Positions 7,348 through 38,866 of a stretch of DNA of 64,000 bases are shown here, piece after piece. Under the pieces are notes generated by a model that worked only from the letters and a program-made list of their open reading frames with translations, made no database searches and was not told the origin of the DNA. This DNA comes from a virus. Taxonomy: Duplodnaviria > Heunggongvirae > Uroviricota > Caudoviricetes. The stretch is from the IMG/VR virus record IMGVR_UViG_2574180019_000006; one strand, written 5' to 3'. The position numbers and the translations under genes are program-made. Positions within the stretch are counted from its first letter, which is position 1; each line of letters starts with the position of its first letter.

Positions 7348-7366
7348 CATATGGTGGGGGATATCC

Positions 7367-8705
7367 CATAAGCGCTAACTTAAGGGTTGTGGTATTACGC
7401 CTGATATGATTTAACGTGCCGATGAATTACTCTCACGATAACTGGTCAGCAATTCTGGCCCATATTGGTAAGCCCGAAGAACTGGATACTTCGGCACGTA
7501 ATGCCGGGGCTCTAACCCGCCGCCGCGAAATTCGTGATGCTGCAACTCTGCTACGTCTGGGGCTGGCTTACGGCCCCGGGGGGATGTCATTACGTGAAGT
7601 CACTGCATGGGCTCAGCTCCATGACGTTGCAACATTATCTGACGTGGCTCTCCTGAAGCGGCTGCGGAATGCCGCCGACTGGTTTGGCATACTTGCCGCA
7701 CAAACACTTGCTGTACGCGCCGCAGTTACGGGTTGTACAAGCGGAAAGAGATTGCGTCTTGTCGATGGAACAGCAATCAGTGCGCCCGGGGGCGGCAGCG
7801 CTGAATGGCGACTACATATGGGATATGATCCTCATACCTGTCAGTTCACTGATTTTGAGCTAACCGACAGCAGAGACGCTGAACGGCTGGACCGATTTGC
7901 GCAAACGGCAGACGAGATACGCATTGCTGACCGGGGATTCGGTTCGCGTCCCGAATGTATCCGCTCACTTGCTTTTGGAGAAGCTGATTATATCGTCCGG
8001 GTTCACTGGCGAGGATTGCGCTGGTTAACTGCAGAAGGAATGCGCTTTGACATGATGGGTTTTCTGCGCGGGCTGGATTGCGGTAAGAACGGTGAAACCA
8101 CTGTAATGATAGGCAATTCAGGTAATAAAAAAGCCGGAGCTCCCTTTCCGGCACGTCTCATTGCCGTATCACTTCCTCCCGAAAAAGCATTAATCAGTAA
8201 AACCCGACTGCTCAGCGAGAATCGTCGAAAAGGACGAGTAGTTCAGGCGGAAACGCTGGAAGCAGCGGGCCATGTGCTATTGCTAACATCATTACCGGAA
8301 GATGAATATTCAGCAGAGCAAGTGGCTGATTGTTACCGTCTGCGATGGCAAATTGAACTGGCTTTTAAGCGGCTCAAAAGTTTGCTGCACCTGGATGCTT
8401 TGCGTGCAAAGGAACCTGAACTCGCGAAAGCGTGGATATTTGCTAATCTACTCGCCGCATTTTTAATTGACGACATAATCCAGCCATCGCTGGATTTCCC
8501 CCCCAGAAGTGCCGGATCCGAAAAGAAGAACTAACTCGTTGTGGAGAATAACAAAAATGGTCATCTGGAGCTTACAGGTGGCCATTCGTGGGACAGTATC
8601 CCTGACAGCCTACAAAACGCAATTGAAGAACGCGAGGCATCGTCTTAACGAGGCACCGAGGCGTCGCATTCTTCAGATGGTTCAACCCTTAAGTTAGCGC
8701 TTATG
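7367..8705. mobile_element. IS186 (IS4 family) insertion sequence, ~1339 bp
   Basis: Terminal inverted repeats cataagcgctaacttaagggttg (7367-7389) and caacccttaagttagcgcttatg (8683-8705); flanked by 10-bp direct repeat ggggatatcc (7357-7366 and 8706-8715); encodes 372-aa transposase recognised as IS186. Confidence 0.85.
7416..8534 (+). CDS. insL: IS186 transposase
   Basis: 372-aa ORF filling the IS; N-terminus MNYSHDNWSAILAHIGKPEELDTSARNAGALTRRREIRD recalled as IS186 transposase. Confidence 0.85.
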   Translation: MPMNYSHDNWSAILAHIGKPEELDTSARNAGALTRRREIRDAATLLRLGLAYGPGGMSLREVTAWAQLHDVATLSDVALLKRLRNAADWFGILAAQTLAVRAAVTGCTSGKRLRLVDGTAISAPGGGSAEWRLHMGYDPHTCQFTDFELTDSRDAERLDRFAQTADEIRIADRGFGSRPECIRSLAFGEADYIVRVHWRGLRWLTAEGMRFDMMGFLRGLDCGKNGETTVMIGNSGNKKAGAPFPARLIAVSLPPEKALISKTRLLSENRRKGRVVQAETLEAAGHVLLLTSLPEDEYSAEQVADCYRLRWQIELAFKRLKSLLHLDALRAKEPELAKAWIFANLLAAFLIDDIIQPSLDFPPRSAGSEKKN

Positions 8706-8754
8706 GGGGATATCCCCACCTTCTCTTTGATTTGTAAGCCTTGTTTAAACACAT

Positions 8755-8775
8755 AAGATAACAACTTGTTTAAAC
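8755..8775. promoter_or_regulatory. Palindrome AAACAA-N-TTGTTT upstream of nrdB (operator or 5'-UTR hairpin)
   Basis: ataacaacttgtttaaac ~30 nt upstream of ATG; same motif recurs upstream of many ORFs. Confidence 0.4.
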
Positions 8776-8802
8776 GCACCAAAAAAGAAAAAGGAAAAAC
8801 AC

Positions 8803-9945
8803 ATGTCATATTCAACGTTCCGTTTGGGTGCTAATGATGCAACCAAAGAGCCTATGTTCCTCGGACAATCTGTCAACGTGGCACGTTACGATCAGCAAAA
8901 ATACCGTGATTTTGAAAAGTTGATTGAACGTCAATTGTCTTTCTTCTGGCGGCCGGAAGAAGTTGATATTTCGAGCGATCGTATCGACTTCAACACGAAG
9001 CTGCGGGACCACGAACGTCACATTTTTCTGAGCAATCTCCGTTATCAAACGTTACTCGATTCAGTTCAGGGACGTAGTCCAAATGCAACGCTGCTGCCGC
9101 TTATCTCTATTCCTGAACTGGAAACGTGGGTTGAAACGTGGTCTTTCTCTGAGACTATCCATAGCCGCAGCTACACCCACATTATTCGTGGCATGGTGGA
9201 CGATCCGAGCATTGTTTTTGACGGTATTGTTACGGATGAAGAAATCATCAACCGAGCGATCAGTATCTCTGCTGAATATGACAGGCTTTATGGGATGACC
9301 TGCGAGCGCCAGTCGTTAGGTGAGAAGGAATTTGAGCGTCTGTACGTAAATGAATATGGCTGGGAGCCATACCCTTTGCATCGTCAGCTTTTCCGCACGT
9401 TGGTGTCCATTAATGCGCTTGAGGCGATCCGTTTCTACGTAAGTTTTGCATGTACGTTTGCCTTTGGTGAACGGAAGTTGCTTGAGGGTAACACCAAAAT
9501 TATGCGCTTTATTGCCCGTGATGAAGCTCTGCATTGCGAAGGAACTGAACGCATGATCCGCTTCATGCGTACCGGTCGCGAAGGTTTATTGTGGAAAGAG
9601 ATTGCTGCTGATGAAGAAAACGTCATTTACGACACCATGAAATCAGTCGCCGAACAAGAAATGAACTGGGCAGACTATCTCTTCAAAGACGGTTCGATGA
9701 TTGGTTTAAACGCGGATATTCTCAAAACCTATGTAAAATACCGCACCAATCTGGCTATGAATCGTCTTGGCCTGAAGGCTTTATTTCCAGAAGTTACCAC
9801 TGATCCGCTGGTCTGGATGAACAAGTGGTTGTTAACCGACACACTGCAAATTGCACCACAAGAGGCAGAGCAAAGCACATATCTGGTAGGTCAGATCGAT
9901 TCTACCGTGGATAAGGCTTCTCTAAGCCAGTTTGCAGACCTGTAA
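8803..9945 (+). CDS. nrdB: Ribonucleotide reductase class Ia small subunit
   Basis: 380 aa; near-colinear with E. coli NrdB as recalled ([83 protein letters not shown]). Confidence 0.9.
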
Positions 9946-11036: not shown

Positions 11037-12167
11037 GTGGTTACTTATCTTTGTGAGGTTTTTGTGTCACTCCTTTTGAATCGTGAGCATACGAACGGTC
11101 AGGTAACAAACGCATCGTATGCAAAAGTTATTGAGACGGTGCTTAAAAGCGGCGTGCAGGCTGATGATCGCACAGGCACTGGTACTTTAAGCACCTGTTA
11201 CGTTCCCTCTTACTACATGCTTACTGGTGGGACTGTGCCGCTTATTTCTGGAAAGGCGGTAAATCTTAAGCCACTGCTTGTCGAACTTGAGTGGTATCTG
11301 AAAGGCACGGGCAACATCCAATTTCTCAAGGATAACGGCGTTAAGATTTGGGATGCATGGGCCGATGAGAATGGCGATTTGGGGCCGGTTTACGGTAAGC
11401 AGTGGCGTCGATGGGAAGATACCCGCATCGTGAGCCATAGTGAATATCTGAGCAAGATCGCTACTTTCCGTGAACGCGGGTACAAAGTCGAGGGATACCT
11501 GGGTATCAGTGAAGATCGCGTAGTGCTGTCCCGTGAAATCGATCAGCTACAGCGTATTGTCGATACACTGCGCACGAACCCTACCGATCGTCGCATCATG
11601 CTTAACGCATGGAACGTAGGCGAGCTTGAGGATATGAAACTGCCACCTTGCCACTTTGTCTTCTCTTTGTGGAGTCGTGAACTGGATTTTGAAACCCGTT
11701 TAACGATGGCAACTGACATTGGTCTTCAACACAGTCGCCTCGGTTACGAGTCTATCTACACCAAGATGCTATACGATCTGGAGATGGACGGCAGTGTTAC
11801 TGAAACTGAACTGGATGAACTTGGAATCCCCAAACGCATCCTCAACTCCTGCCTCGTACAGCGTAGCGTAGACACTTTTGTTGGTATGCCATTCAATATT
11901 GCTGGCTATGGCATTCTCACTCATTTTCTCGCGAAGATTACGGGTCACATGGCCGGTGCATTTGTGCATTTTGGCTTTGACGTGCATTTGTACAACAACC
12001 ACATGGAAGGTGTGTGTGAGCTAATGCAACGACAGGCTCCAGAGCATTCAGATCCGGTCGTTATATTCCCTAATGAATGGTCTGAGCTGGATGATTTCAA
12101 ATGGGACGAGATTCTTATTCTTGGCTATGCCCCTCTACCGTGGATCAAGGTTCCAGTGGCGGTGTGA
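11037..12167 (+). CDS. thyA: Thymidylate synthase (ThyA-like) with two large insertions; true start probably GTG at 11064
   Basis: Conserved ThyA blocks DDRTGTGTLS, WADENGDLGPVYGKQWR, DRRIMLNAWNVGELEDMKLPPCHFVFSLW (catalytic Cys), VDTFVGMPFNIAGYGILTHF, HLYNNHME, GYAPLPWIKVPVAV; ~35-aa and ~60-aa inserts relative to E. coli ThyA. Confidence 0.8.
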   Translation: MVTYLCEVFVSLLLNREHTNGQVTNASYAKVIETVLKSGVQADDRTGTGTLSTCYVPSYYMLTGGTVPLISGKAVNLKPLLVELEWYLKGTGNIQFLKDNGVKIWDAWADENGDLGPVYGKQWRRWEDTRIVSHSEYLSKIATFRERGYKVEGYLGISEDRVVLSREIDQLQRIVDTLRTNPTDRRIMLNAWNVGELEDMKLPPCHFVFSLWSRELDFETRLTMATDIGLQHSRLGYESIYTKMLYDLEMDGSVTETELDELGIPKRILNSCLVQRSVDTFVGMPFNIAGYGILTHFLAKITGHMAGAFVHFGFDVHLYNNHMEGVCELMQRQAPEHSDPVVIFPNEWSELDDFKWDEILILGYAPLPWIKVPVAV

Positions 12168-12168
12168 T

Positions 12169-12582
12169 ATGGCAAGAGGTATGTATGTCTTATGCGAAAT
12201 TGAAGGTGTGCTGGCAAATACCAGCCATCGTAAATCTGTATCTGACTCGGATGCAGGCCAATTCATTGCAGGTGATGAACTCATTTTCCCCACCAGCCGT
12301 ATGTTGCGTGGTTTTGCTCGCTCAGGGGCTGAAGTGGTGCTTATCAGTAGCCGCTCTGAAACTCTTGAAGCGCCCACTAAACGATGGCTGAAAGATTTTG
12401 GTGTTGATTACGACTGGCTTCATCTCGTACCGAATAGCACCAGTTATGAGAAGCATATTAAGCGCACATTAGCGGAGCATAAAGGCGATCTGCTTATCGC
12501 TGCGCTGGTGCACGATCCTCGACTCCGTGCCGCTTTAGCTGACTCTCATCATAGACCGGTCATCTATGAGGTGAGCAAATGA
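12169..12582 (+). CDS. hypothetical protein (possible HAD-like fold, non-canonical)
   Basis: ORF between thyA and DHFR; ATG overlaps thyA stop region; no canonical DxDGT motif. Confidence 0.35.
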   Translation: MARGMYVLCEIEGVLANTSHRKSVSDSDAGQFIAGDELIFPTSRMLRGFARSGAEVVLISSRSETLEAPTKRWLKDFGVDYDWLHLVPNSTSYEKHIKRTLAEHKGDLLIAALVHDPRLRAALADSHHRPVIYEVSK

Positions 12583-18973: not shown

Positions 18974-18990
18974 GAAAACAACTTGTTTTG
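18974..18990. promoter_or_regulatory. Palindrome gaaaacaacttgttttg upstream of TerB-like gene
   Basis: AAACAA-N-TTGTTT family, ~25 nt upstream of ATG followed by aaaaggaaaacacATG. Confidence 0.4.
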
Positions 18991-26899: not shown

Positions 26900-27260
26900 C
26901 TGGTTGACGTACTCAATGATCGCTTCGATGATTGCGAACATAGGCGGCACGATTTTGAAAAGTAAGTTAAGCACTATAGGCCTCACTTAGTTTTATCGCA
27001 CCTAGCTGCAAATACCTTTGAGCTTGCCTTTGCAGTTGCAATATCTGTAGTCGCCAGATACTTACGGCACGATTTCGAGTTAAGGTAAGGTTTTAGAGTC
27101 ACCAAAAACCTGGACTTAAATCTTCTTTGAGAACAACGATGTTTAGTAAATGGTCATTATTACCTAGTATGACCACTCAACGTTTCTTGATGAATCCAGT
27201 ACATTCGGTTAATCTTAGCTCAGTCGCCAGATACTTATGGCTCAGGAACAGAGCCGCAAA
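26900..27260. repeat. Non-coding region with three degenerate ~30-40-bp repeats (cggcacgattt(t/c)ga..; agtcgccagatactta(c/t)gg)
   Basis: Units at ~26936-26975, ~27048-27100 and ~27220-27245 share cores by eye; no ORF; lies at junction between phage-like genes and host-like block. Confidence 0.4.
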
Positions 27261-27275
27261 CTCTGTTTCCTTTTA

Positions 27276-27309
27276 AAAAGCCCAGCCTAGTCAACTGGGC
27301 TTTTTAATG
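27276..27309 (+). terminator. Rho-independent terminator
   Basis: aaaagcccagcctagtcaactgggcttttt. Confidence 0.5.
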
Positions 27310-27600
27310 TCTATTTTTAACCCAACATACCCTCAATACTGCAACATCAGTGTCTTGCGAATTAAGATAGTGTGAATAGATTTTTCATGCAAGTGCATAA
27401 GCCTGTGGATAACTCAGGAAGGAAAAAGTGACTTCTGCGCACTTTAGACCGGACAAGGCGTTCGAAAAAGTCAATGGGAAGAAAAAATTTGTTAAAAATA
27501 ACGTTTGTTTGAATTGTATATATTTATGCCTTTCAATAGTTAGCATCTTATTAACATCTTTTTTAAGAGATAGAGTTCAAAAATATATAGCTTCAATATA

Positions 27601-27620
27601 TACTGTATGTGTATACAGTA
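27601..27620. promoter_or_regulatory. LexA (SOS) box
   Basis: tactgtatgtgtatacagta = CTGT-N8-ACAG palindrome matching the LexA operator consensus, 16 nt upstream of the UmuD'-like start with RBS aagagg between. Confidence 0.7.
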
Positions 27621-27636
27621 TTAAGAGGCGAGTATT

Positions 27637-28026
27637 ATGGGCTTCCCTTCTCCTGCGGCGGATTATGTTGAGAGCCGTATTTCTCTTGATCAGCAGATAA
27701 TTAGACATCCTTCAGCGACCTACTTCATGAGAGCGGCTGACAGCCATCATCGTGAGGGAATATTGCAGGGCGCATTGCTGGTGGTCGATTCCTCACTTAC
27801 CCCGGTTGATGGTTCTCTGCTTGTATGCGCTCTGGATGGGGAATATCGCGTAAAAAGATACCGGAAGTATCCACGTCAGCATCTGGAGGATTTAAGAACT
27901 GGTAAGAAGGAAGCATTGCCAAAGGATGACGATGGATGCACGGGCAGCAATGCCGTGTTTGGTGTGATCACTCACATTATCAACGACGCAAGAAGTGGCG
28001 AGTTTGATGATTGTCCCGTGATGTAG
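27637..28026 (+). CDS. UmuD'-like S24 peptidase-family protein (starts at the position equivalent to the UmuD autocleavage product)
   Basis: MGFPSPAADYVESRISLDQQIIRHPSATYF nearly identical to E. coli UmuD residues ~25-55 as recalled; Ser of GDS(M) retained as ADSH and Lys in VKRY; C-terminal third diverged; no umuC follows. Confidence 0.7.
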   Translation: MGFPSPAADYVESRISLDQQIIRHPSATYFMRAADSHHREGILQGALLVVDSSLTPVDGSLLVCALDGEYRVKRYRKYPRQHLEDLRTGKKEALPKDDDGCTGSNAVFGVITHIINDARSGEFDDCPVM

Positions 28027-28037
28027 GAGAACTGATT

Positions 28038-28063
28038 AGGCGGTGCAATGCACCGCCTTTTTA
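28038..28063. terminator. Bidirectional terminator hairpin between UmuD'-like gene and mrp
   Basis: aggcggtgcaatgcaccgcc hairpin with T-run on plus strand; convergent gene ends. Confidence 0.5.
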
Positions 28064-29164
28064 TCACACTGCGCGGAATGCGATTTCGCCAGGTATTACT
28101 TCACCTTGCCAATACATTTGGGCAGCAACGCGATCTGCGAGGTCACGATAAATAGCTGTAAATTCGCTATCTGGACGACTAATAACGGTTGGTGTTCCGT
28201 TATCCAGATCTTCACGAAGAGAGATATGAAGTGGCATTTGGCCTAACAACTGCGTGTTGTATTTCTCGGCCAGTTTCTGTGCGCCACCGGTGCCAAAAAT
28301 TGGCTCGTGATGACCGCAGTTACTGCAAATATGCACACTCATGTTTTCAACGATACCCAGTACCGGCACTTCGACTTTTTCGAACATCACAATGCCTTTC
28401 TTCGCATCGATCAGCGCGATGTCTTGCGGCGTAGTTACCACAACCGCACCAGTTACAGGAATGTTCTGCGCCAGCGTCAACTGAATATCACCAGTGCCCG
28501 GCGGCATATCGAGAACAAGATAGTCCAGATCAGGCCACAATGTTTCCTGCAACATCTGCATTAACGCCTTGCTCGCCATCGGTCCACGCCACACCATTGC
28601 ATTGTCGTCGGTGACCAGATAACCAATAGAGTTGGTTGCCAGGCCATGAGACATGATAGGTGCCATGTGAGTACCGTCAGGTGAGGTTGGACGTTGGTTT
28701 TCCGCGCCCAGCATGGTTGGAATTGATGGACCATAGATATCGGCATCCAAAATACCAACTTTCGCACCTTCAGCAGCCAACGCCAGTGCCAGGTTTACCG
28801 CCGTGGAGGATTTACCCACGCCGCCCTTGCCTGAGCTGACGGCGATAATGTTCTTAACGCCATTAATGCCTGGTTGGTTTTTGACACGCTTAAGCGTGGC
28901 AATGTTGTACGACAGCTTCCAGTCAATAGCCTTTGCGCCAGTGATACGGAGCAGATCACCACTACATTGCTCTTTCAGGTCTTCAAAAGGCTTATTCCAC
29001 ACGAAAGGCATGATTAGTTCGACATGCAGTGTGTCATCCATCAACGCAACATGGTGTAACGCTTTAAGCGTAGTCAGGTTGTGTTTCAGGGTTGGGTGCT
29101 GAAAATTAGCCAGCGTACCGGCTACCATTGCTCTCAGGGCATCCGGCGATTTGGACTCGCTCAT
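28064..29164 (-). CDS. mrp: Mrp/ApbC Fe-S cluster carrier ATPase (ParA/MinD-family)
   Basis: 366 aa; deviant Walker A SGKGGVGKSST, CxxC (CSNCG); near-identical by recall to enterobacterial Mrp/ApbC; divergent from metG as in the E. coli chromosome. Confidence 0.9.
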   Translation of the reverse strand: MSESKSPDALRAMVAGTLANFQHPTLKHNLTTLKALHHVALMDDTLHVELIMPFVWNKPFEDLKEQCSGDLLRITGAKAIDWKLSYNIATLKRVKNQPGINGVKNIIAVSSGKGGVGKSSTAVNLALALAAEGAKVGILDADIYGPSIPTMLGAENQRPTSPDGTHMAPIMSHGLATNSIGYLVTDDNAMVWRGPMASKALMQMLQETLWPDLDYLVLDMPPGTGDIQLTLAQNIPVTGAVVVTTPQDIALIDAKKGIVMFEKVEVPVLGIVENMSVHICSNCGHHEPIFGTGGAQKLAEKYNTQLLGQMPLHISLREDLDNGTPTVISRPDSEFTAIYRDLADRVAAQMYWQGEVIPGEIAFRAV

Positions 29165-29321
29165 CCCGTCTCCTTTATTTTAATTTGCGCAATTGTCGCC
29201 TTGTAGTGTACTCCAGCTACGACATTTAATCATTTATGAGAAATGCTGTTATCACATGGCAGACATAAGGCCATTTTGTTACTATCAAGCCCCTTTTCAC
29301 TACAAAGAAGTAATGCCTACT

Positions 29322-31355
29322 ATGACCCAAGTCGCGAAGAAAATTCTGGTGACGTGCGCGCTGCCGTACGCTAACGGCTCAATCCACCTCGGCCATATGC
29401 TGGAGCACATCCAGGCTGATGTCTGGGTTCGTTACCAGCGAATGCGCGGCCACGAGGTTAATTTCATCTGTGCCGACGATGCCCACGGTACGCCAATCAT
29501 GCTGAAAGCACAGCAGCTTGGTATCACACCGGAACAGATGATTGGCGAAATGAGTCAGGAACATCAGACTGATTTCGCAGGCTTTAACATCAGCTATGAC
29601 AACTATCACTCTACGCACAGCGAAGAGAACCGTCAGTTGTCCGAGCTTATCTATACTCGCCTGAAAGAGAACGGTTTTATTAAAAACCGCACCATCTCTC
29701 AGCTGTACGACCCGGAAAAAGGCATGTTCCTGCCGGACCGTTTTGTAAAAGGCACATGCCCGAAATGTAAAGCGCCGGATCAATACGGCGATAACTGTGA
29801 AGTCTGCGGCGCGACATACAGCCCGACGGAACTGATCGAGCCGAAATCAGTGGTTTCTGGCGCTACCCCGGTAATGCGTGATTCCGAACACTTCTTCTTT
29901 GATCTGCCCTCTTTCAGCGAAATGTTGCAGGCATGGACCCGCAGCGGTGCGTTGCAGGAGCAGGTGGCAAACAAAATGCAGGAGTGGTTTGAATCTGGCC
30001 TGCAACAGTGGGATATCTCCCGTGACGCACCTTACTTCGGTTTTGAAATTCCGAACGCACCGGGCAAATACTTCTACGTCTGGCTGGACGCGCCGATTGG
30101 CTACATGGGTTCCTTCAAGAATCTGTGCGACAAACGCGGCGATACCACCAGCTTCGATGAATACTGGAAGAAAGACTCCACCGCCGAGCTGTACCACTTC
30201 ATCGGTAAAGATATTGTTTACTTCCACAGCCTGTTCTGGCCTGCCATGCTGGAAGGCAGCAACTTCCGCAAGCCGACCAACCTGTTTGTTCACGGCTATG
30301 TGACGGTGAACGGCGCGAAGATGTCCAAGTCTCGCGGCACCTTTATTAAAGCCAGCACCTGGCTGAATCATTTTGACGCCGACAGCCTGCGTTACTACTA
30401 CGCTGCGAAACTCTCTTCGCGCATTGATGATATCGATCTCAATCTGGAAGATTTCGTTCAGCGTGTGAATGCCGATATCGTTAACAAAGTGGTTAACCTG
30501 GCCTCCCGTAATGCAGGCTTTATCAACAAGCGTTTTGACGGCGTGCTGGCAAGCGAACTGGCTGACCCGCAACTGTACAAAACCTTTACTGATGCCGCTG
30601 AAGTGATTGGCGAAGCATGGGAAAGCCGCGAATTTGGTAAAGCTATCCGTGAAATCATGGCATTGGCTGACCTGGCTAACCGCTATGTCGATGAACAGGC
30701 TCCGTGGGTGGTGGCGAAGCAGGAAGGACGCGATGCCGATCTGCAGGCGATTTGCTCTATGGGCATTAACCTGTTCCGCGTGCTGATGACGTACCTGAAG
30801 CCGGTACTGCCGAAACTGACTGAACGTGCAGAAACATTCCTGAATACAGAACTGACCTGGGATGGTATCCAGCAACCGCTGCTGGGCCATAAAGTGAATC
30901 CGTTCAAGGCACTGTATAACCGTATCGATATGAAGCAGGTTGAAGCACTGGTGGAAGCATCTAAAGAAGAAGTGAAAGCAGCTGCCACGCCAGTAACTGG
31001 CCCGCTGGCAGATGATCCGATTCAGGAAACCATCACCTTTGATGACTTCGCCAAAGTTGACCTGCGCGTGGCGCTGATTGAAAACGCAGAGTTTGTAGAA
31101 GGTTCTGACAAACTGCTTCGCCTGACGCTGGATCTCGGTGGTGAAAAGCGTAATGTCTTCTCAGGCATCCGTTCCGCTTATCCAGATCCACAGGCACTGA
31201 TTGGTCGTCACACCATTATGGTGGCTAACCTGGCACCACGTAAAATGCGCTTCGGTATCTCTGAAGGCATGGTGATGGCTGCTGGCCCTGGCGGGAAAGA
31301 TATCTTCCTGTTAAGCCCGGATGTCGGTGCTAAACCTGGCCACCAGGTTAAGTAA
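29322..31355 (+). CDS. metG: Methionyl-tRNA synthetase
   Basis: Starts [30 protein letters not shown] (HIGH motif), KMSKS present, C-terminal tRNA-binding domain; essentially colinear with E. coli MetG as recalled; ORF-track start 29193 is an upstream in-frame extension. Confidence 0.95.
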
Positions 31356-31376
31356 TTAAGCAACCATTCTTCACAA

Positions 31377-31405
31377 TGCCCAGCAATACGCTGGGCATTT
31401 TCATA
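31377..31405 (+). terminator. Rho-independent terminator of metG
   Basis: atgcccagcaatacgctgggcat hairpin followed by tttcat. Confidence 0.5.
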
Positions 31406-31436
31406 TAGACACAACCCCTTCTGACTTTAACAAACC

Positions 31437-31504
31437 CTAAAACAATTTGTTTTCTACCTTTTGTTGATTGAGATAATAAGCCACATAAGAAAACAAATTG
31501 TTTC
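31437..31504. promoter_or_regulatory. Two tandem AAACAA-N-TTGTTT palindromes immediately right of metG
   Basis: taaaacaatttgttttc (31437-31454) and gaaaacaaattgtttc (31489-31504); first phage-type motif after host block. Confidence 0.4.
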
Positions 31505-31516
31505 GGAGTGGTTGAA

Positions 31517-31816
31517 ATGTTGAACATTACCCAAGCCTACCAGGTGGCATTGATCAGTTCATCTCATACATCAGAGGAAGATGCTCGCCGATTCATGATC
31601 GCAAGCAATGAGCTGGATTGGGTTTCACAAATTGACGGCGGTTGTATTGTCCACGCCGGGTTACAGGATGATGTCTGGAAAGAGGACTTGCGTCGATATG
31701 GTATATCCGAAGGCGCAATTGCTAACATTCAGAAAGTACTTGATGTAGGCTTTGACTGTGTACATTTTGATTGTGGTGCGCCGATCGTTGAAGGGCTTGA
31801 GTGCTGGTGTTGGTAG
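31517..31816 (+). CDS. hypothetical protein (~100 aa)
   Basis: ATG 31517 preceded by ggag; ORF track begins at GTG 31508. Confidence 0.4.
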   Translation: MLNITQAYQVALISSSHTSEEDARRFMIASNELDWVSQIDGGCIVHAGLQDDVWKEDLRRYGISEGAIANIQKVLDVGFDCVHFDCGAPIVEGLECWCW

Positions 31817-31947
31817 AGTGTATAAGCGGATCAATGAGTTACGGAAACAGTTAATAATGAGGAGCTTGTAATAAGCTGTATACCCTAGAAAAGCTAGACT
31901 AGGGAATAAAATGACGTGAAACTGGGCGGGACAGTAAATAATTCCGA

Positions 31948-33177
31948 ATGATAATTGAACAAATAACCCCTTGCTCGGAGCTTGGAATGACTGATACCGC
32001 TTTTTCAAAATCGTTACAAAAAGAAGTCGATCCTGAGCAGTACTTGGCGCTAAAGAATTTAGATGACAGCTCGGTTCATGCTATTGCCCGTGACGATATC
32101 ATCTGCCCCATTTGCAAAGTTGGAGGTGGTTCGTTCGTTAGAGCCACTAGGAATGGTGGCTATCACAAGAAGGCGCATTTCAGATTTACCGGTGAAGATG
32201 GTCAAGGCCATCATCCATCATGTGATTTCTATGGAGATAGATTAACATCTGAGGTGAAGCAGCACCTTGTCTCATTCACAAAAGATCGAACAAAGTATTC
32301 GCAGGTAATACGAAAGCTGGTCTGTGCCGGCATACAGGAAGGGATATTTACTCAAGAAAAAATGTGGCAGATGAGGGAATGGTTCTTCAATAAGCGAAAG
32401 GATTCCACATTTGAAATATGGTTAGAAAGCGAGCATTTAGACTGGCTTTATTATATTAGTGGGTTACGTGATGCATATCTAGCATGGACAACTCCTGATA
32501 TTCTACCTTTCGCGCCCATTCAGGTTACTGTCCCTGGTTTTTCTTGGAGGCGTGCGATTGACAAAGAGGTGCTAAGAGTTCACATCAAGACTCTCCAGCA
32601 ATTGCGTGAAATTTCAGTCTCACATAGTGACATTGCTGTAATCTTAGAACACATAAACAATAATCGTGACCGCACAATTCTCGATCCATCGCATTTGGAG
32701 GACGAGATAAGTAAGACCTATAAGCTTACTAGTTTTGTGATGGGCAATTACATTGAGTTTCAGACAAAAACGGTTAGCGACAGAGCATACGGGGAAGCTA
32801 AGTTTCTGGCATTTGCAGCACTTTTGTTGTTCGTGTCAGATTGGGACCTCAACATTGCTATTGGTAAGTTTTCTAAGATTGCCAGAGTGAAGGAGGTTGA
32901 TGACATGCTGGCTGGTAATTTCATTGGTCTTAATCCTTACTTCCGATACGACCTGGCTAATGCAGTGAAGAGATTGCAGGATAACTGGCCGATTGAATAC
33001 CAAGAGTTGGAGCATTGGAATGTTGAGAAATCCATGCGTGACGCATATGAAAAGTGGCGTGCGACAGAGCCTGAATTCGCTCCACCCCTATTGCCAGACT
33101 TGTATATTGCCAAACATGAGAAAGAAGTCGCACAAGACGAGCAAGTCAGGCAGTGGATTAAGAACGGGGATGTTTGA
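31948..33177 (+). CDS. hypothetical protein with N-terminal Cys/His zinc-ribbon-like motif (alternative start 31987)
   Basis: 409-aa ORF; CPICK...HHPSCDF cluster; AT-rich upstream region without the phage-type leader; ggag RBS before ATG 31987. Confidence 0.5.
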   Translation: MIIEQITPCSELGMTDTAFSKSLQKEVDPEQYLALKNLDDSSVHAIARDDIICPICKVGGGSFVRATRNGGYHKKAHFRFTGEDGQGHHPSCDFYGDRLTSEVKQHLVSFTKDRTKYSQVIRKLVCAGIQEGIFTQEKMWQMREWFFNKRKDSTFEIWLESEHLDWLYYISGLRDAYLAWTTPDILPFAPIQVTVPGFSWRRAIDKEVLRVHIKTLQQLREISVSHSDIAVILEHINNNRDRTILDPSHLEDEISKTYKLTSFVMGNYIEFQTKTVSDRAYGEAKFLAFAALLLFVSDWDLNIAIGKFSKIARVKEVDDMLAGNFIGLNPYFRYDLANAVKRLQDNWPIEYQELEHWNVEKSMRDAYEKWRATEPEFAPPLLPDLYIAKHEKEVAQDEQVRQWIKNGDV

Positions 33178-33299
33178 GTGTAATTAGCTTAATCAATCAG
33201 TTGATAATGGCGGTCACAATTTGATTCTTTTCTATAAGAATCCGTTGATCGCCACTACTCCCCTTCCATAGCTGCAATCATACCCTTAAATATCAATAG

Positions 33300-34100
33300 G
33301 TTATGGTTGTTTATACAAATAAGAAAACAACTAAATAACAGATCAACGAAACGTCAACGCTTTCACCCGATTTGGTCTAAAAAATTGACGTTTTCACACA
33401 TCACTTCTTATACCCGTAACTCTACGCAGCAGACAGCGCCACAGCGTCCAATTTTCACCACAGACGACCCAACACACTACCAACAAAAACACACGCTCAA
33501 AATCGCTCCCGTTGCGTTACACAACCATATAAACAACTTATTTTCAGGCATAACAAAACAACTAAATAACACACATGCCATTCCCAAAAACAACCAACCT
33601 CTTTATGGCAGGCTACCGAAAAGACCCACCTCTTCTCCCCAGGCTACCGGACAACCAACCTAACTTTCACAGGCAATCCGAAAACATTCATACGCGCAAT
33701 ACCCACGACACGCCATTCCCCAAACAGCGAAGAAACACCAGAATCACTGAAACCCCAACGAAGCCTGTAACCGCAAGGATTCTCTCAATCCCAAAAGACA
33801 CGAAACATAACAATCACGGGAAATACCATTACCCAATACACGAATAACTACAAAAGCCTTTCACACACTCCAGACAAACAACTCAAACACAATAACGAAA
33901 GGAATCGCCCACCTGCCATTACTCCATACACGGAGAAGAACAATCACCAAAACGACGAGAACACCCCATAGAAGAACCACCGCAAAACGAACGAAACCAC
34001 ATACACCGACAGAGAGAACAACACACCCAATTCACCAACAGAAATAGTCGCCGTATAGAACGTTCTGGAAGGAGTGAGCATTAACGCCTATAGAGAGGTT
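33300..34100. other. ORF-free, strongly strand-asymmetric (A+C-rich, G-poor on plus strand) region with internal short repeats
   Basis: No ORF >=60 aa on minus strand; plus-strand ORFs are low-complexity; repeated aaaacaactaaataaca units; composition visibly skewed. Confidence 0.5.
33590..33670. repeat. ~80-bp repeat R, copy 1 (caaccaacctc...caggctaccg...cccacct...ggctaccgg...aactttc)
   Basis: ~75% identical by eye to copy at 37115-37200. Confidence 0.45.
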
Positions 34101-34246
34101 GAGACAGATAAAAACAACATGTATAGCGAAGAAGCCAGGTATGTATAAGTGGGGAGGGAAGGAGGGGTGTCGCCTCCTTTTTCGTATTTATTCAACTCCT
34201 GATTTTATCCCCCCGTAACACCCCTACGGTCAGCCTTCGGTCCATA

Positions 34247-34385
34247 CAGGGAAAAGGTTGCATCCCGCTACAGAAACGGCTGGGTTGCCTTCGGGGAACG
34301 GCTGGGGATTTTCAGGGAAACGGTCGAGTTGCCTGTGTGGATTTCGGGAAAAGGCTCGATGCCGGTTCAGGAACGGCGGCGTACC
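34247..34385. repeat. Iteron-like tandem array 1: six degenerate ~22-bp units with core (C)AGGGAAA(A/C)GG(C/T)TG
   Basis: cagggaaaaggttgcat / cagaaacggctgggttgc / ggggaacggctgggg / cagggaaacggtcgag / cgggaaaaggctcgatg / caggaacggcggcg in direct orientation. Confidence 0.55.
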
Positions 34386-34710
34386 GGTATAGCGAGAGGG
34401 AGAGTTGCGGCTACCCACCTGTAATGTGCGGGAAGAAGAGAGGCGCTCACGTAGGCGGACTTGCTTACCGCTGGATTCCCTCTGAATGCCCAGCTACAGC
34501 GTAATTGTGCCAGACAGCCAACGGGGCACAATCGATTTCAGTAGGTTTTTGGGGAGAGGATTACTCTGCCACCAGCCACTTTCGGCCACTAAATCAGAAT
34601 AATGTAAAAAGTGTACTCGGTACTGAACCTGAAAACTCACTGCCAAAACCACATTCACCGGAATAAAATCCTTTTTCGCCTGTGCGTTATTGCGATAATA
34701 ACACCAACAA

Positions 34711-34727
34711 GTAAACAACATGTTTAG
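34711..34727. promoter_or_regulatory. Palindrome gtaaacaacatgtttag
   Basis: AAACAA-N-TTGTTT family upstream of ORF 34758. Confidence 0.4.
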
Positions 34728-34757
34728 ACGTTATATAAACGAAGTGAGGATGAAGAG

Positions 34758-34976
34758 ATGATTAAGATGCCTGTGACGGTTGAGGTGTGGGGCGTGGATT
34801 CCCTGGCTGAGTGTCTGGATGCAGTGGGGCCGGAGTTGTACCGCAAGTTGTGGTCGTTCGTCCCGGCAGAAGGGGAATCGCCCAAAGGGAAGGATATCTG
34901 GCACCTGCTGAGTGAAGATGAAAAGCGGGAGCTGGTGGACGCGGTACACAGCGAGTTCCCGGGCGACGAAGATTAA
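34758..34976 (+). CDS. hypothetical small protein (72 aa)
   Basis: RBS gaggatgaagag; preceded by conserved palindrome. Confidence 0.4.
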   Translation: MIKMPVTVEVWGVDSLAECLDAVGPELYRKLWSFVPAEGESPKGKDIWHLLSEDEKRELVDAVHSEFPGDED

Positions 34977-35114
34977 GAGTGAGGCCACCAGCACGGTGGC
35001 TTTTGTCGCTATTAACCTCCGGGCAGCGCAGCACCGTAACGATATACTTTGTGGCCGTTTTCTTACTGGTATTATTTACGCAATTCAGAAAACAACATGT
35101 TTAAGGATTGCGTT

Positions 35115-35444
35115 ATGTTTGCAAATATCGACATCAACCAAATCAAGAAAATGACTCAAAAAGAGTTTGACCAGTTTTATGAGTTAGAAGGTTGGTCTTC
35201 CACGCTGATCAATTCGCGCTGGGTGCTTGAGCTGATGACTCGTGATGATGCTCCTGCTTTGATTATTTGCGACCTGGGTGAAGATGCTGACTTTATGGAT
35301 ATGAGCGAATTTTGTGTGGACACATACAACCGCAGCCAGAAGTACTACTTCACATGCGATAGCGAGAATGACGTTATTTCTAAGGTCTATCTTCACCTCG
35401 TCCAGCATTGGGACGTTCAGGAGTTTCTTGAAGTATTCGAGTAA
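35115..35444 (+). CDS. hypothetical protein (~109 aa)
   Basis: ATG 35115 with RBS aagga 7 nt upstream; ORF track starts at TTG 35049; upstream promoter-like ttgtgg-N-tatttacgc and palindrome 35088-35105. Confidence 0.4.
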   Translation: MFANIDINQIKKMTQKEFDQFYELEGWSSTLINSRWVLELMTRDDAPALIICDLGEDADFMDMSEFCVDTYNRSQKYYFTCDSENDVISKVYLHLVQHWDVQEFLEVFE

Positions 35445-35597
35445 CCCCAACCAAAGCCAGCATTGCTGGCTTAATTTCTCTATAGCCGCAGGGAAGAACC
35501 TGCATATCGCTCATGCGCCTGATCAATATGCTTTGTAGCCGTTTTCTTACTGGTATTATTTACGCCATTGAGAAAACAAGTTGTTTACGGAGTTGTA

Positions 35598-35909
35598 ATG
35601 AAAAAATCATTGGTTCTTGGTCTGGACAAAGACCAGAAGAGAAAAGAGAAGCCTGCGCTGGTTGCTCAATTAACTTTGCTGGACATCGTTGCCAATGGAA
35701 CCTCTATTCGTCTGTTCCGTGAAACAGCGGTGTCTTTCGATAAAAACACCTTTACTCGTTATGTAATGAATGTTCGTCGCCAGCGTGGAAAAGGCTGGGT
35801 GGCATTTCAAAGAATGTGGCCGGAACATCAGCTCGAACTGGCTTTGATGGAAGTTAACCGCGTGGCCCAGCAAGAGATTCAGAGAGCATCAGTGATGGCA
35901 ATAGCCTGA
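35598..35909 (+). CDS. hypothetical protein (~103 aa)
   Basis: ATG 35598 with RBS acggag; ORF track starts at TTG 35568; upstream ~45-bp block duplicated from 35051-35090 plus palindrome 35572-35588. Confidence 0.45.
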   Translation: MKKSLVLGLDKDQKRKEKPALVAQLTLLDIVANGTSIRLFRETAVSFDKNTFTRYVMNVRRQRGKGWVAFQRMWPEHQLELALMEVNRVAQQEIQRASVMAIA

Positions 35910-35943
35910 TAATGTGCAAGTGGCAATTAGTCGACAGTACGAC

Positions 35944-35973
35944 AGCCCCGCCATCCTTACGGGGCTTTTTTGT
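35944..35973 (+). terminator. Rho-independent terminator
   Basis: agccccgccatccttacggggct hairpin followed by tttttgt. Confidence 0.6.
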
Positions 35974-35976
35974 ATT

Positions 35977-35992
35977 GTAAGTATATACTTAC
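35977..35992. promoter_or_regulatory. Perfect palindrome gtaagtatatacttac
   Basis: Recurrent palindromic element family; identical 16-mer at 56623-56638. Confidence 0.4.
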
Positions 35993-36035
35993 GATCATAG
36001 AATATAAAAATAACCAAAACACTACGGAGAGTGAA

Positions 36036-36431
36036 ATGACCGTTAAACGCGAAAAACTGACAGTTGATGTTTACTATGCCTCTGAAACCGCCGAAGGTAA
36101 GAATGTGGCAAAAATTACCGTTGTTACGTACAACACCGAAACTGGTGCCGAAGTCCAGGCCAGTACGATCGTTCGTAAAGGTGATGCCTCCGGCGGCGAG
36201 TACGCGACTCAATACCAGTCCATTCTCGATGCAACTGACCCGCTGCTGCTGAAAATCGAGAACTACTTCCGCCAGGTTGATGAAGAGGTGTTTGAAACCA
36301 TGATGAATATGGTTAACACCGTATTCGCCTCCAGCCTGAATACCAACACTACCTGGATTGGTCAGTACGGCCTGCGCATTACCTCTGGCATTCCTGCCGA
36401 CACCTTAATCCCTGAAAGCGTATTCGCTTAA
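36036..36431 (+). CDS. hypothetical protein (~131 aa)
   Basis: ATG 36036 preceded by acggagag; followed by terminator ggcgcgtaaaccgcgcc-tttt. Confidence 0.45.
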   Translation: MTVKREKLTVDVYYASETAEGKNVAKITVVTYNTETGAEVQASTIVRKGDASGGEYATQYQSILDATDPLLLKIENYFRQVDEEVFETMMNMVNTVFASSLNTNTTWIGQYGLRITSGIPADTLIPESVFA

Positions 36432-36548
36432 TCCTCTTTAAATGGCGCGTAAACCGCGCCATTTTATTAAGCCCGATAACAATTTGTTTTCTGCCTTATC
36501 TGATTTGTGAAAATGATTTCACTGAAGCAACTTAATAAGGAAACCATC

Positions 36549-36923
36549 ATGGGACTTGATATCTATATCGAGACACAGCCTAAAAACGATCTGAATAACG
36601 AGGCATCCAGAAAGCAGGTTGCTTACTTCCGTAAGTTCAATGCGCTCGTTGGGTGGATGGAGCGCAACGTAGGTGAAGTCGAAAATTGTGAGCTTTTAGA
36701 ATTAACGATGAATGACATTTGTTTTCTGAAGGCTCATTTGATGCACATAAACGAAAGTAATTGCGAAGAGTACTTGCCTACCCGGGAAGGTTTTTTCTTC
36801 GGCAGTCAGGAGTACGATGAAGGTTACTGGCATGATGTGGGGCAGTTGAAAGAGCTTGTGGAAGATCTGATTAAGAACCACGACTTTCACAATAACAGAC
36901 TGACCTTCTGCGCCTGGTGGTAA
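36549..36923 (+). CDS. hypothetical protein (~124 aa)
   Basis: ATG 36549 with RBS aaggaaacc; palindrome gataacaatttgttttc at 36475-36491. Confidence 0.45.
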   Translation: MGLDIYIETQPKNDLNNEASRKQVAYFRKFNALVGWMERNVGEVENCELLELTMNDICFLKAHLMHINESNCEEYLPTREGFFFGSQEYDEGYWHDVGQLKELVEDLIKNHDFHNNRLTFCAWW

Positions 36924-36925
36924 AT

Positions 36926-37069
36926 ATGGGCGATTTCAAGAAACGCCTGAAGGAAAGAGCCGAGATGGTCAGAAAGCAAAACGCCTCTTCTGTCATCAGA
37001 TACGCAAGGCAGTTTAGTCGCAACAACAAATCAGTTGAGGAAAAGATCCTTAGCGTAATCGTGCGATAA
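36926..37069 (+). CDS. hypothetical small basic protein (47 aa)
   Basis: Not in ORF track; ATG 3 nt after upstream stop; followed by hairpin aggccatcagcattggtggcct. Confidence 0.3.
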   Translation: MGDFKKRLKERAEMVRKQNASSVIRYARQFSRNNKSVEEKILSVIVR

Positions 37070-37114
37070 TTATTAAGGCCATCAGCATTGGTGGCCTTAA
37101 ATGACCATCTTGTT

Positions 37115-37200
37115 TCCCGCAGGCTAAAAACACCAACCTCTTACCTCCAGGCAACCGACAAACCCACCTGTTCCCGTCCGGCTACCGCAACTTTCCACTT
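37115..37200. repeat. ~80-bp repeat R, copy 2
   Basis: Matches 33590-33670 by eye (caccaacctctt...caggcaaccga...cccacct...ggctaccgc..aactttcc). Confidence 0.45.
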
Positions 37201-37273
37201 TGACGCCTTATTCGTACAACGATAATTAACACCAACAAGAAAACAATTTGTTATTTACGATAAGGAATTAATC

Positions 37274-37756
37274 ATGAATTTTATCGCTACTGTAAACGCA
37301 CCCGCACATGGCAATATCGCTGTAACGTTCTCTGACATTGAAAAACGAGTACTTGGTGCATGGCGCGACAATGAGACGGTAGAACTGTCAGCACAAGAAA
37401 AATGCATTATTGCACGCGACATCATTGGCAATCGTCGTTACTCGCGGGTATTTGAGAAAGCGTATGTGGTAAATTCTGGATTCGGAACGTTCGTCTTTCC
37501 GGTGCGCTCCGGGCGATTCTGCCAGTCCAAGCTGATTGAGTTCGCTACGCAGATTTCTTTCTGGATTAAAACTCAATCGTCGTTCAAATTTTCCGACGAT
37601 GAAGCAGTATCGCAGGGGATGCGGATCGCCAACAATGCAATTAAATGCAAAAACATTACGTATACCGCTGGCGTTGATACATGGAAACTGTTTTGCGCTA
37701 ACTTTATGCTGAATGTATACGCAAGCAACCGCATCCACATCCTTGATGGCGTGTAA
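37274..37756 (+). CDS. hypothetical protein (160 aa)
   Basis: ORF with palindrome gaaaacaatttgttat 20 nt upstream; terminator agagggccagaaacggccctttctc after stop. Confidence 0.45.
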   Translation: MNFIATVNAPAHGNIAVTFSDIEKRVLGAWRDNETVELSAQEKCIIARDIIGNRRYSRVFEKAYVVNSGFGTFVFPVRSGRFCQSKLIEFATQISFWIKTQSSFKFSDDEAVSQGMRIANNAIKCKNITYTAGVDTWKLFCANFMLNVYASNRIHILDGV

Positions 37757-37805
37757 CTGAGAAGAGGGCCAGAAACGGCCCTTTCTCTATAGCCACCAGC
37801 TGCCG

Positions 37806-37925
37806 CAGGGAAATTTTCAGAAACGGCGAGGAACGTATTCATGAGCCGACGGGGAACGGCCAGGATTTTTTCGGGAAACGGCTGCATTTGCCTTTGTGTA
37901 GAAAAAACATCGGGAAGCTGGTGGA
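37806..37925. repeat. Iteron-like tandem array 2 (agggaaatttt / agaaacggcgagg / ggggaacggccagg / cgggaaacggctgcat / gggaagctggtgg)
   Basis: Same GGGAAACGG-type core as array at 34247-34385, direct orientation, ~3.5 kb apart; single related unit also at ~35497-35513. Confidence 0.5.
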
Positions 37926-37929
37926 ATCC

Positions 37930-38360
37930 AACCAGCGGTTGTCGGACAGGTGAGCGGGGAAAATTATGATGACTTTCGTCACCTGAGACATCCAGATTTC
38001 TTTCGTAGCATAATCACATACGTGATTAAGTGGTGTGATTATGTGAAAAATCACGCGCACATAATACGCGAGCGGATACGGAACAAAACAAAATGCCGAT
38101 CCGCGCCGACAAATAAACGCGGATCATAAAGCAAGACTAAAAGCCAATGATTAACTATGCGCTATAACGCGTTTTAAGCGCGTTAATGTGTTAAGTAATG
38201 GGTATGTACTGGCAAGGATATAAAAGCGCGTCTATGGCGTTATTTTGGCGCTTATTTTTATGTTGTTGGAGTGAGTTAAAGACAATAAAAAACGCGCCAT
38301 CAATGGCGCGTTATTGTGGAAGTATTGGAAACGAAAAAAGCGCCCATAGTGGGCGCTCGA
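37930..38360. other. AT-rich non-coding region with multiple GC-cored hairpins (gcgccatcaatggcgc, gcgcccatagtgggcgc, acgcgttttaagcgcgt)
   Basis: No ORF; at least four related palindromes (another copy at ~38838-38855); upstream end of minus-strand gene block. Confidence 0.4.
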
Positions 38361-38362
38361 TT

Positions 38363-38593
38363 TTATTTGTGTAAACTGATTTTAAATCCCATTTCTACGA
38401 ACGCTTTTAACATTAAAAATATATCAGCGTCGTTCACGTCTGCTTTTTTTCGCTCCTGGTCGCTCAATAAGTCAATTTTGCGCGTCGTTTCATCTATAAG
38501 CTCGACTACACGCCCAGCGTAACCAGCGATCCCAGCGATGCGATTAACATAATATTCATTATGGACGTTAACGCCAGCGATAAGAACAAACAT
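38363..38593 (-). CDS. hypothetical protein (76 aa)
   Basis: Minus-strand ORF, last gene of minus-strand block. Confidence 0.4.
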   Translation of the reverse strand: MFVLIAGVNVHNEYYVNRIAGIAGYAGRVVELIDETTRKIDLLSDQERKKADVNDADIFLMLKAFVEMGFKISLHK

Positions 38594-38614
38594 GATTAAG
38601 CTCCTTAAAAAAAA

Positions 38615-38818
38615 TTAAATAGAATTTTGAAGTTTTCCGATTAATGCGCTTAAGCGTAAGTATTCACGTTTGCGCTTGCAATCTCGCTTGCTGTTAAGCA
38701 AATCAGAAAACGTAAAATTTAATTGGTCGCGTTGCGCGATCAAATCGTCGATTAATTCCAGTTTATAAGCGCGATAATTTGCGCGATATTCTGCGCGGAT
38801 CTTGTCATAGCTGACCAT
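38615..38818 (-). CDS. hypothetical protein (~67 aa)
   Basis: Internal ATG at 38818 preceded by aaggag; ORF track extends to 38863 through an upstream hairpin. Confidence 0.4.
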   Translation of the reverse strand: MVSYDKIRAEYRANYRAYKLELIDDLIAQRDQLNFTFSDLLNSKRDCKRKREYLRLSALIGKLQNSI

Positions 38819-38866
38819 CTTTAAAGCTCCTTTAAAGCGCCCATTGTGGGCGCTTGATTCCATTAA

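Follow-up and report, generated by a model that had tools for sequence, protein, structure and literature searches.

Prophages and their satellites carry single-gene defense cargo in hotspots, as in the P2/P4 hotspot genes and the PD-T4, PD-T7 and PD-lambda genes. Gabija, a two-gene system, pairs GajA, an OLD-family ATPase-TOPRIM nuclease, with GajB, a UvrD helicase. Gad1 and Gad2 act against Gabija and are mobile-element-borne phage proteins of ~300–400 amino acids (aa); the PDB includes Gad1 in complex with GajAB. Here, we analyze a gene for a 396-aa protein in IMGVR_UViG_2574180019_000006, a 64,000-nucleotide (nt) stretch of viral DNA referred to throughout as the window. The nearest described counterparts of this protein are the family PHROG 12525, SSU5_107 of phage SSU5, and a copy on pHCM2 of S. 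Typhi, all of them uncharacterized. We tentatively favor the reading, at a chance somewhat below even, that the gene is a self-contained single-gene immune module, carried as anti-phage defense cargo in a swappable phage-plasmid slot.

The gene resembles the hotspot defense genes in several respects. It stands alone, is interchangeable cargo between conserved flanks, and has homologs in defense islands and prophage accessory regions. It differs from them in that the protein has neither a PADLOC v2 match nor a known effector domain. Gabija is the family's most frequent immediate neighbor, but unlike GajA and GajB the 396-aa protein has no ATPase, TOPRIM, or helicase motif in Pfam or PADLOC searches, and most Gabija loci do without it. 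Unlike the phage proteins Gad1 and Gad2, the family is mainly chromosomal and lies beside intact Gabija. Identity with Gad1 or Gad2 was rejected, as the protein has no sequence or fold match to any PDB chain.

The initial annotation of the window took the gene to be a 409-aa open reading frame (ORF) at 31948–33177. This ORF is present, but its start was set too far upstream; the true gene is 396 aa long. The 13 extra codons are absent from all relatives, and both the homologs and PHROG 12525 begin at residue 14, with the sequence MTDTAF. Full-length homologs (~370–408 aa) start with MTDTAF, MTETAF, or similar. Nucleotide homology to the copies in pHCM2, Kluyvera, Klebsiella phage-plasmids, SSU5, and a Pectobacterium chromosome begins at 31971–31987, and 31817–31970 is never covered. 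A Shine-Dalgarno sequence, GGAG, lies 6 nt before the ATG at 31987, and no ribosome-binding site precedes the ATG at 31948. Because the homolog starts, the PHROG 12525 start, the edge of nucleotide homology, and the GGAG agree, the conserved gene starts at ATG 31987, and the codons before it are most likely an untranslated leader. The RefSeq annotation is the 1191-bp version of the gene, and an identical 396-aa protein is encoded on 227 public contigs. The features of the gene and its start are:

31987..33177, + strand: the gene proper, stop codon included, encoding a stand-alone 396-aa PHROG 12525 protein
31948..31986, + strand: extra codons of the 409-aa ORF (31948..33177, + strand), unconserved and without a ribosome-binding site
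31977..31980, + strand: Shine-Dalgarno GGAG, read from the sequence

The match to PHROG 12525 spans the full length of the protein (residues 14–408 of the 409-aa ORF against profile positions 1–396 of 399, E 4.3e-209), and this PHROG has no functional category. A set of 5.8 billion proteins yielded 86 homologs, and a profile search of 1.84 billion representatives yielded 215 clusters at 50% identity. Nearly all full-length members are stand-alone proteins of ~360–400 aa with a single architecture, and no domain fusion was seen among the 215 clusters. Conservation was read from an alignment of 35 homologs ranging from 77% down to 25% identity. Two cysteines in a CPxC motif (C40, C43) and an H-x3-C pair (H75, C79) are invariant in all 35, which is far from chance and bears out the N-terminal Cys/His cluster pointed out in the initial annotation. 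The two pairs are separated by 31 residues, with an HFRF strand between them. By sequence criteria, they form a C2HC metal site predicted to bind zinc. The conserved elements of the protein are:

32104..32115, + strand: putative first zinc knuckle, C40-P-I-C43, both cysteines invariant
32176..32187, + strand: H64-F65-R66-F67 strand, with F65 and F67 invariant and H64 and R66 at least 90% conserved
32209..32223, + strand: second ligand pair, H75-H-P-S-C79, with H75 and C79 invariant
32005..32040, + strand: N-terminal motif S7...E13-x-D15-x-x-Q18, all four residues invariant
32809..32844, + strand: hydrophobic core helix LAFxALLLFVSxW of the predicted all-alpha C-terminal domain, with A275, L279, and L281 invariant
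32914..32937, + strand: signature loop G-N-x-I-G-L-N-P, with N311, G314, and L315 invariant

The S7/E13/D15/Q18 motif is a possible catalytic or interaction site. The GNxIGLNP loop served as the search pattern for related loci.

An AlphaFold2 model built with the homolog alignment (predicted local distance difference test, pLDDT, 87.2; predicted template modeling score, pTM, 0.79) has a beta-rich N-terminal portion of ~100 residues followed by an all-alpha domain. Between the ligand pairs it places four short strands (residues 48–67, pLDDT 72–87). The predicted arrangement is like that of zinc-ribbon and treble-clef C2HC domains, in which a CPxC knuckle and an H-x3-C pair flank short beta strands, here within a predicted beta-rich domain. 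It is unlike the curated zinc ribbons in the 31-residue spacing with its invariant HFRF strand and in the helical remainder, which has no detectable relative; no curated zinc-ribbon Pfam family reaches threshold. Pfam and NCBIfam scans returned nothing above noise, and the only recurring weak Pfam signal is zf-Di19, in 8 of the 35 members. PADLOC-DB v2.0.0 gave no model match, only a 30-residue chance match (E 0.007). Searches of PDB sequences with the single protein and with the profile found nothing above chance, and Foldseek found no structural relative in the PDB or BFVD (best E 0.4 and 0.27, respectively; template modeling score ~0.1). Judged against the beta-beta-alpha metal fold of HNH and His-Me finger nucleases, in which CxxC pairs flank a catalytic His and Asn/His, the protein did not qualify as one of these enzymes. 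The family is an orphan, with a confidently predicted fold for which no relative could be detected. The earlier description of a zinc-ribbon-like protein of unknown function is apt, given the invariant C2HC set in a predicted beta-rich N-terminal domain and the lack of an annotated family match.

The surrounding region matches the SSU5-group Escherichia phage-plasmids CMS-2020a, Cyrano, and PhiR41_1, plus 366 plasmid records. Judged by this homology, the window is an E. coli phage-plasmid of the SSU5/pHCM2 type. Homology to Cyrano and PhiR41_1 ends exactly at the stop codon of the DUF5983 gene (31816) and restarts at 33190–33201, which brackets the 396-aa gene between two conserved flanks:

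31508..31816, + strand: DUF5983 gene, the conserved left flank of the slot, with two AAACAAnnTGTTT palindromes upstream
31817..31970, + strand: lineage-specific AT-rich upstream filler at the left edge of the cassette, with no homology to other copies and without AAACAAnnTGTTT
33178–34183, + strand: A/C-rich, G-poor non-coding block, the conserved right flank (flank homology from 33190), with nucleotide conservation in relatives

The slot is empty in PhiR41_1. In Cyrano it holds a 244-aa acidic coiled-coil protein (locus record L001, 6463–7197), and in other E. coli plasmids a 61-aa protein, either alone or with a 186-aa protein. The 61-aa protein (L105, 754–939) has a sub-threshold match of 17 residues to the T7 gp5.9 RecBCD inhibitor (E 0.005). 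The translation of the 186-aa protein (L105, 1101–1661) contains several hydrophobic stretches, and on this reading by eye rather than by a prediction tool it looks membrane-embedded. Exclusion proteins are often membrane-embedded. None of these three alternative cargo proteins matches PADLOC. Among 5,426 complete E. coli genomes, metG is found on 220 plasmids; 36 of these metG-bearing phage-plasmids (~16%) carry the 396-aa gene and 184 lack it. The 36 copies share at least 99% identity, each on a plasmid of ~110 kb. The gene fills a genuine variable cargo slot between the DUF5983 gene and the A/C-rich block.

The same position is occupied in the more distant elements. SSU5_107 (YP_006906739.1), an ortholog from the same family with 57% identity to the window protein, has this A/C-rich block immediately downstream of it. 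In pHCM2 the order is a DUF5983 gene (E 2.8e-21), a 9-nt gap, the orthologous family member (WP_000132517.1, ~84% nucleotide identity), and the same non-coding block; there the gene lies within a co-directional array of small early-type genes. The 102-aa ORF upstream of the gene in the window carries the DUF5983 C-terminal domain (E 1.6e-10). The E. coli copy is unlike those of SSU5 and pHCM2 in its lineage-specific 150-nt upstream region and in its adjacent mrp-metG block. This block of captured host DNA (28064–31355) consists of mrp/apbC on the - strand and metG on the + strand and is conserved in Escherichia phage-plasmid relatives, which makes it, on the alignments, an established part of this phage-plasmid lineage. 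The gene had been placed at the edge of the host-gene block. The block is real (its metG is 94–94.7% identical to chromosomal E. coli metG), but the DUF5983 gene stands between metG and the 396-aa gene. SSU5 and pHCM2 both lack mrp-metG. Because they share the gene's position without this block, this position is an ancestral trait of the SSU5 group and has no connection with the capture of mrp-metG. The separate acquisition suggested earlier holds insofar as this is a variable cassette slot, empty in PhiR41_1, filled by other cargo elsewhere, and occupied by the gene in 36 of 220 cases. It fails insofar as the position is old and independent of the neighboring capture, and the history is better described as retention or re-acquisition at an ancestral hotspot.

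The company that the family keeps in other genomes bears on a role in immunity. A scan of one genome per species (GTDB) gave 56 loci from Alpha-, Beta-, and Gammaproteobacteria and Cyanobacteria, of which the 54 with a family match were counted. Loci were typed by crude ORF calling and clustering of neighbors, with representatives assigned by PADLOC and Pfam and with GajA, GajB, HamB, and LmuB located by tblastn. Neighbor frequencies are raw locus counts. Gabija lies within 10 kb in 26 of the 54 species loci, and GajA or GajB within 260 nt in 22. These Gabija neighbors belong to four PADLOC model pairs (00093/00111, 00099/00147, 00102/00148, and 04168/04173) and occur in at least five arrangements, among them GajA-GajB preceding the gene, GajA-GajB following it, and convergent layouts. 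A complete Hachiman system (HamA and HamB) lies 56 nt upstream in two loci, and a SIR2-type Lamassu 138 nt upstream in one. In all, Gabija, Hachiman, or Lamassu directly adjoins the gene in ~46% of species-level loci. When the family is clustered at 60% identity, Gabija appears in 5 of 17 clusters and Hachiman in 1; the largest cluster is paired with two Gabija subfamilies in three arrangements, and with Lamassu. Repeated placement beside four Gabija subfamilies in differing arrangements is a specific genomic signal. The initial annotation had proposed looking for defense islands around the homologs, and the outcome is strongly positive, with Gabija at no more than 260 nt in 22 of 54 loci and Hachiman, Lamassu, and Shedu elsewhere.

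Individual loci point the same way. In Sphingobium, an integrase island has Gabija beside the family gene, and in Bradyrhizobium both Shedu and Gabija are beside it. The Patiriisocius gene adjoins a gene pair of reverse transcriptase and SLATT, with Gabija nearby. In Xanthomonas the gene is in an island with two integrases, and in Pseudomonas it follows umuDC at the cargo end of a P2-like prophage. PDC-S02 and HD-CE/HATPase neighbors were also seen. A Klebsiella relative (49% identity) stands solo in the accessory region of a lambdoid prophage, between the O/P/ParB-HTH (helix-turn-helix) genes and Q, adjoining a Panacea-domain gene and a pyocin module. A Yersinia relative (51% identity) is part of an integrative element, at a distance of 800 nt from a Cap4-nuclease Lamassu. 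ArdC, CbtA, and a TraI_2 relaxase are encoded on this element too; the gene is between Lamassu and the relaxase, and ArdC is a few genes away beyond Lamassu. The family spans Proteobacteria, Cyanobacteria, and Bacteroidota, and most members are chromosomal, in non-phage islands. It is rare in viruses. Only 4 of 50,697 phage records contain it, all of them phage-plasmids and none virulent, and 27 loci were found in 2.9 million IMG/VR contigs.

Gaps between the gene and the defense system are ~30–250 nt. These gaps, and the lack of a conserved partner, point to a unit that is portable and separate, not to a fixed member of an operon. A two-gene operon was considered and rejected, as the ~200-aa upstream neighbors in Xanthomonas, Sphingobium, and Patiriisocius are mutually unrelated. 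A paralog pair was likewise rejected, since the 387-aa downstream neighbor in one group of alphaproteobacterial islands (the L027 group) is not a paralog. Several alphaproteobacterial islands (L027, L044, L050, and L051, ~11170–12333; L031, L032, L035, and L038, ~7292–9937) have conserved neighbors that are negative in Pfam and PADLOC: the 387-aa protein, 24 nt downstream, and proteins of 257, 274, and 282 aa upstream. They also carry an integrase and a PDC-S02/YhcG-like nuclease. The Pfam- and PADLOC-negative neighbors may be additional island genes. A chromosomal copy in Pectobacterium brasiliense (L013–L015, 6869–8000) is 77% identical to the window protein and follows ychF, with ~1.1 kb without a called gene before it and an opposite-strand 170-aa ORF after it. 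This small islet lies among housekeeping genes, and no integrase is visible around it.

From this distribution, we infer that the protein takes part in phage–host or element–host conflict. Defense is the favored form of that role because the family is mainly chromosomal, in islands beside intact defense systems; because it is almost absent from phages; because its size, breadth of distribution, and stand-alone architecture are typical of single-gene defenses; and because the window copy lacks a repressor-type leader and has its own upstream region. In such a scheme, the protein would defend the lysogen from rival phages or other mobile DNA and so safeguard the phage-plasmid as well. The cue, a nucleic acid or a protein, would be sensed by the zinc domain, and the helical domain would be the effector or an assembly scaffold. 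The protein may act alongside helicase-nuclease systems that sense DNA ends, or as a back-up for them. Expression would probably come from its own weak constitutive promoter, with no repressor-type leader palindrome, which would fit expression in the plasmid-prophage state.

Several points weigh against defense cargo. The link to Gabija comes from relatives only ~27–33% identical to the window protein, and the enterobacterial clade is solo save for one Lamassu neighbor. Related alphaproteobacterial islands account for many of the Gabija-adjacent loci, and only 5 of the 17 clusters at 60% identity show Gabija. No recognizable effector domain (nuclease, NADase, pore, protease, or ATPase) was found in Pfam, PADLOC, NCBIfam, or PDB searches, no structural analog in the Foldseek searches of the PDB and BFVD hints at a chemistry, and the family has no PADLOC v2 model. 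The promoter-like site is weak, and such sites are fewer than in shuffled sequence. The small-gene array of pHCM2 and the small acidic cargo of the slot suit counter-defense equally.

Counter-defense is the main rival to the defense reading. Here, the protein would be an immune modulator that binds or neutralizes DNA-end-sensing helicase/SMC-nuclease systems (Gabija, Lamassu, Hachiman), which we consider unlikely, at about one chance in four. On mobile elements it would shield replication or packaging intermediates from the host systems, and on chromosomes it would be an optional brake against autoimmunity beside them. The adjacency to four Gabija subfamilies, Hachiman, and Lamassu is unusually specific, and the ~30–250 nt gaps suggest a separate transcription unit. 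Solo copies occur on phage-plasmids, in the early-right region (O/P to Q) of a lambdoid prophage, and in an integrative element. The missing effector domain, the embedding of the pHCM2 gene among small co-directional genes, and the same-slot cargo, which includes the 61-aa sub-threshold gp5.9-like protein and the acidic coiled-coil protein, are all as a modulator would have them. Against this reading, the family is nearly absent from phages (4 of 50,697, none virulent; 27 loci in 2.9 million viral contigs), and it is common in non-phage chromosomal islands beside intact Gabija, a system that would be of no use there if the protein inhibited it constitutively. A length of ~380 aa and a wide bacterial distribution are atypical of anti-defense proteins, and there is no sequence or fold likeness to any PDB entry.

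A further reading is that the family is a previously unrecognized optional partner of DNA-end-sensing helicase/SMC-nuclease systems (chiefly Gabija, but also Hachiman and Lamassu), with a new fold and a C2HC zinc sensor, which we regard as rather doubtful, at about one chance in five. In one version it would be a guard, detecting phage inhibitors of Gabija, Hachiman, or Lamassu and triggering a back-up response. In the other it would be a portable brake, which mobile elements of the SSU5/pHCM2 type use to coexist with such systems. When proteins of Gabija, Hachiman, and Lamassu were used as tblastn queries, none of these systems turned up in the window.

The region upstream of the gene bears on the defense reading. 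As the initial annotation had it, this region is AT-rich and without the phage-type leader motif: 31817–31986 has a GC content of 39.4% against 46.5% for the window, and the AAACAAnnTGTTT palindrome was not found there. Counted over both strands, the window holds 20 matches to AAACAAnnTGTTT, where 3.5 would be expected. Two of them precede the ORF just before the gene (31440 and 31491), and others precede small downstream ORFs at 34112, 34713, 35090, and 35574. Further matches are at 18976, 19705, and 47683, and the palindrome precedes many small + strand ORFs. It is embedded in a repeated 77-nt leader (35031–35107 and 35515–35591, 84% identical). AAACAAnnTGTTT has the look of a promoter or operator common to the members of a phage-plasmid regulon. 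The one promoter-like feature before the 396-aa gene is:

31928–31955, + strand: weak sigma-70-like site, GGGACA-16-GATAAT

The 396-aa protein might itself be a DNA-binding regulator, with a zinc domain that reads DNA and controls neighboring accessory or defense genes, much as regulators of the BrxR/CapW type go with many different systems. We hold this to be improbable. It would account for a gene that accompanies several unrelated defense systems as a separate transcription unit, and for an N-terminal domain that is predicted to bind zinc and that, in 8 of 35 members, weakly matches zf-Di19. Yet many loci are convergent with the neighboring system or downstream of it, which is unusual for a dedicated regulator and makes this role less likely. 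In addition, Pfam finds no HTH, WYL, or other regulator domain, the phage-plasmid copy has no partner system nearby, and the flanking genes are the same in relatives without the gene.

Downstream, the A/C-rich block runs for ~1 kb (A 38%, C 28%, G 15%; GC skew -0.30) and ends in a strong intrinsic terminator at 34156–34183. Cyrano, PhiR41_1 (with a partial deletion), SSU5, and pHCM2 all have it, with or without the 396-aa gene, and by this conservation it is a backbone element of the group. A conserved 5' hairpin lies at ~33208–33254, and three imperfect tandem units of ~31 nt (33588–33679) and repeated CCATTMCYC motifs are also seen in the block. The ORFs annotated within it in relatives, such as CYRAN_103, look spurious. 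An Rfam scan of 27000–38000 gave no match in the block. It may encode a long non-coding RNA, serve as a Rho-loading (rut-like) zone, or act in cis as a site. The claim that the gene is followed by the longest non-coding region of the window depends on how ORFs are counted. It stands if the low-complexity ORFs at 33307–33663 and 33575–33847 are discounted (33178 to ~34757, ~1.6 kb), but a mechanical rule of ORFs of at least 90 aa gives 37888–38866 as the longest gap. Just past the terminator, a GC-rich stretch on the + strand (34249–34382) contains two 37-nt direct repeats (GGGAAAAGG...ACGGC...), and SSU5 carries similar GGGAAAAGG/CAGGGAAACGG motifs at the corresponding place. These repeats could be iteron-like or other protein-binding sites.

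The position of the gene directly upstream of this conserved, repeat-bearing block, a possible cis-acting site, and its conservation in SSU5 and pHCM2 would suit an ordinary housekeeping protein of SSU5-type elements, acting in replication, partition, or the virion. Such a role is very improbable. The gene is dispensable, being absent from 184 of the 220 metG phage-plasmids; Cyrano and PhiR41_1, both viable phages, also lack it and retain the block. Most members of the family are chromosomal in non-phage islands, and PHROG 12525 is uncategorized.

The protein was also compared with other described systems. Type II Gabija has GajC, a split MazF-like protein that replaces GajA (PMC13069673). Identity with GajC was rejected, as the model has a zinc beta-domain and an all-alpha domain with no MazF-like PDB match, and the neighboring loci keep GajA. 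A survey of phage-plasmids reported few known defense systems in the SSU5 group, with DS-33, DS-37, and HEC-06 in Salmonella elements (bioRxiv 10.1101/2025.09.12.675607). Of the DefensePredictor systems, DS-33 comprises two genes and is a GNAT system, and DS-37 has just one gene, of 1392 bp or ~463 aa (PMC13092281); neither size nor architecture fits a stand-alone 396-aa protein. Peptides of the family and three WP accessions are absent from the supplements of PMC13092281, which contain no sequences. Our literature search found no paper linking Gabija with a zinc-ribbon accessory gene.

The family is a credible candidate for a new family of immune-conflict proteins. Its gene has long gone unannotated in S. 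Typhi pHCM2, in phage SSU5, and in ~16% of metG-bearing E. coli phage-plasmids. If it is a defense gene, it would add a single-protein system with a new fold, and SSU5-type phage-plasmids, reported to be defense-poor (bioRxiv 10.1101/2025.09.12.675607), would carry immune cargo that escapes the tools now in use. Should it modulate Gabija, Lamassu, or Hachiman instead, this would account for the coexistence of large plasmid-like phages with systems directed against foreign DNA as it replicates, and would offer a handle on the regulation of these systems. As a guard or a portable brake, in either version, it would represent a new class of accessory module, one that travels among unrelated defense systems and mobile elements.

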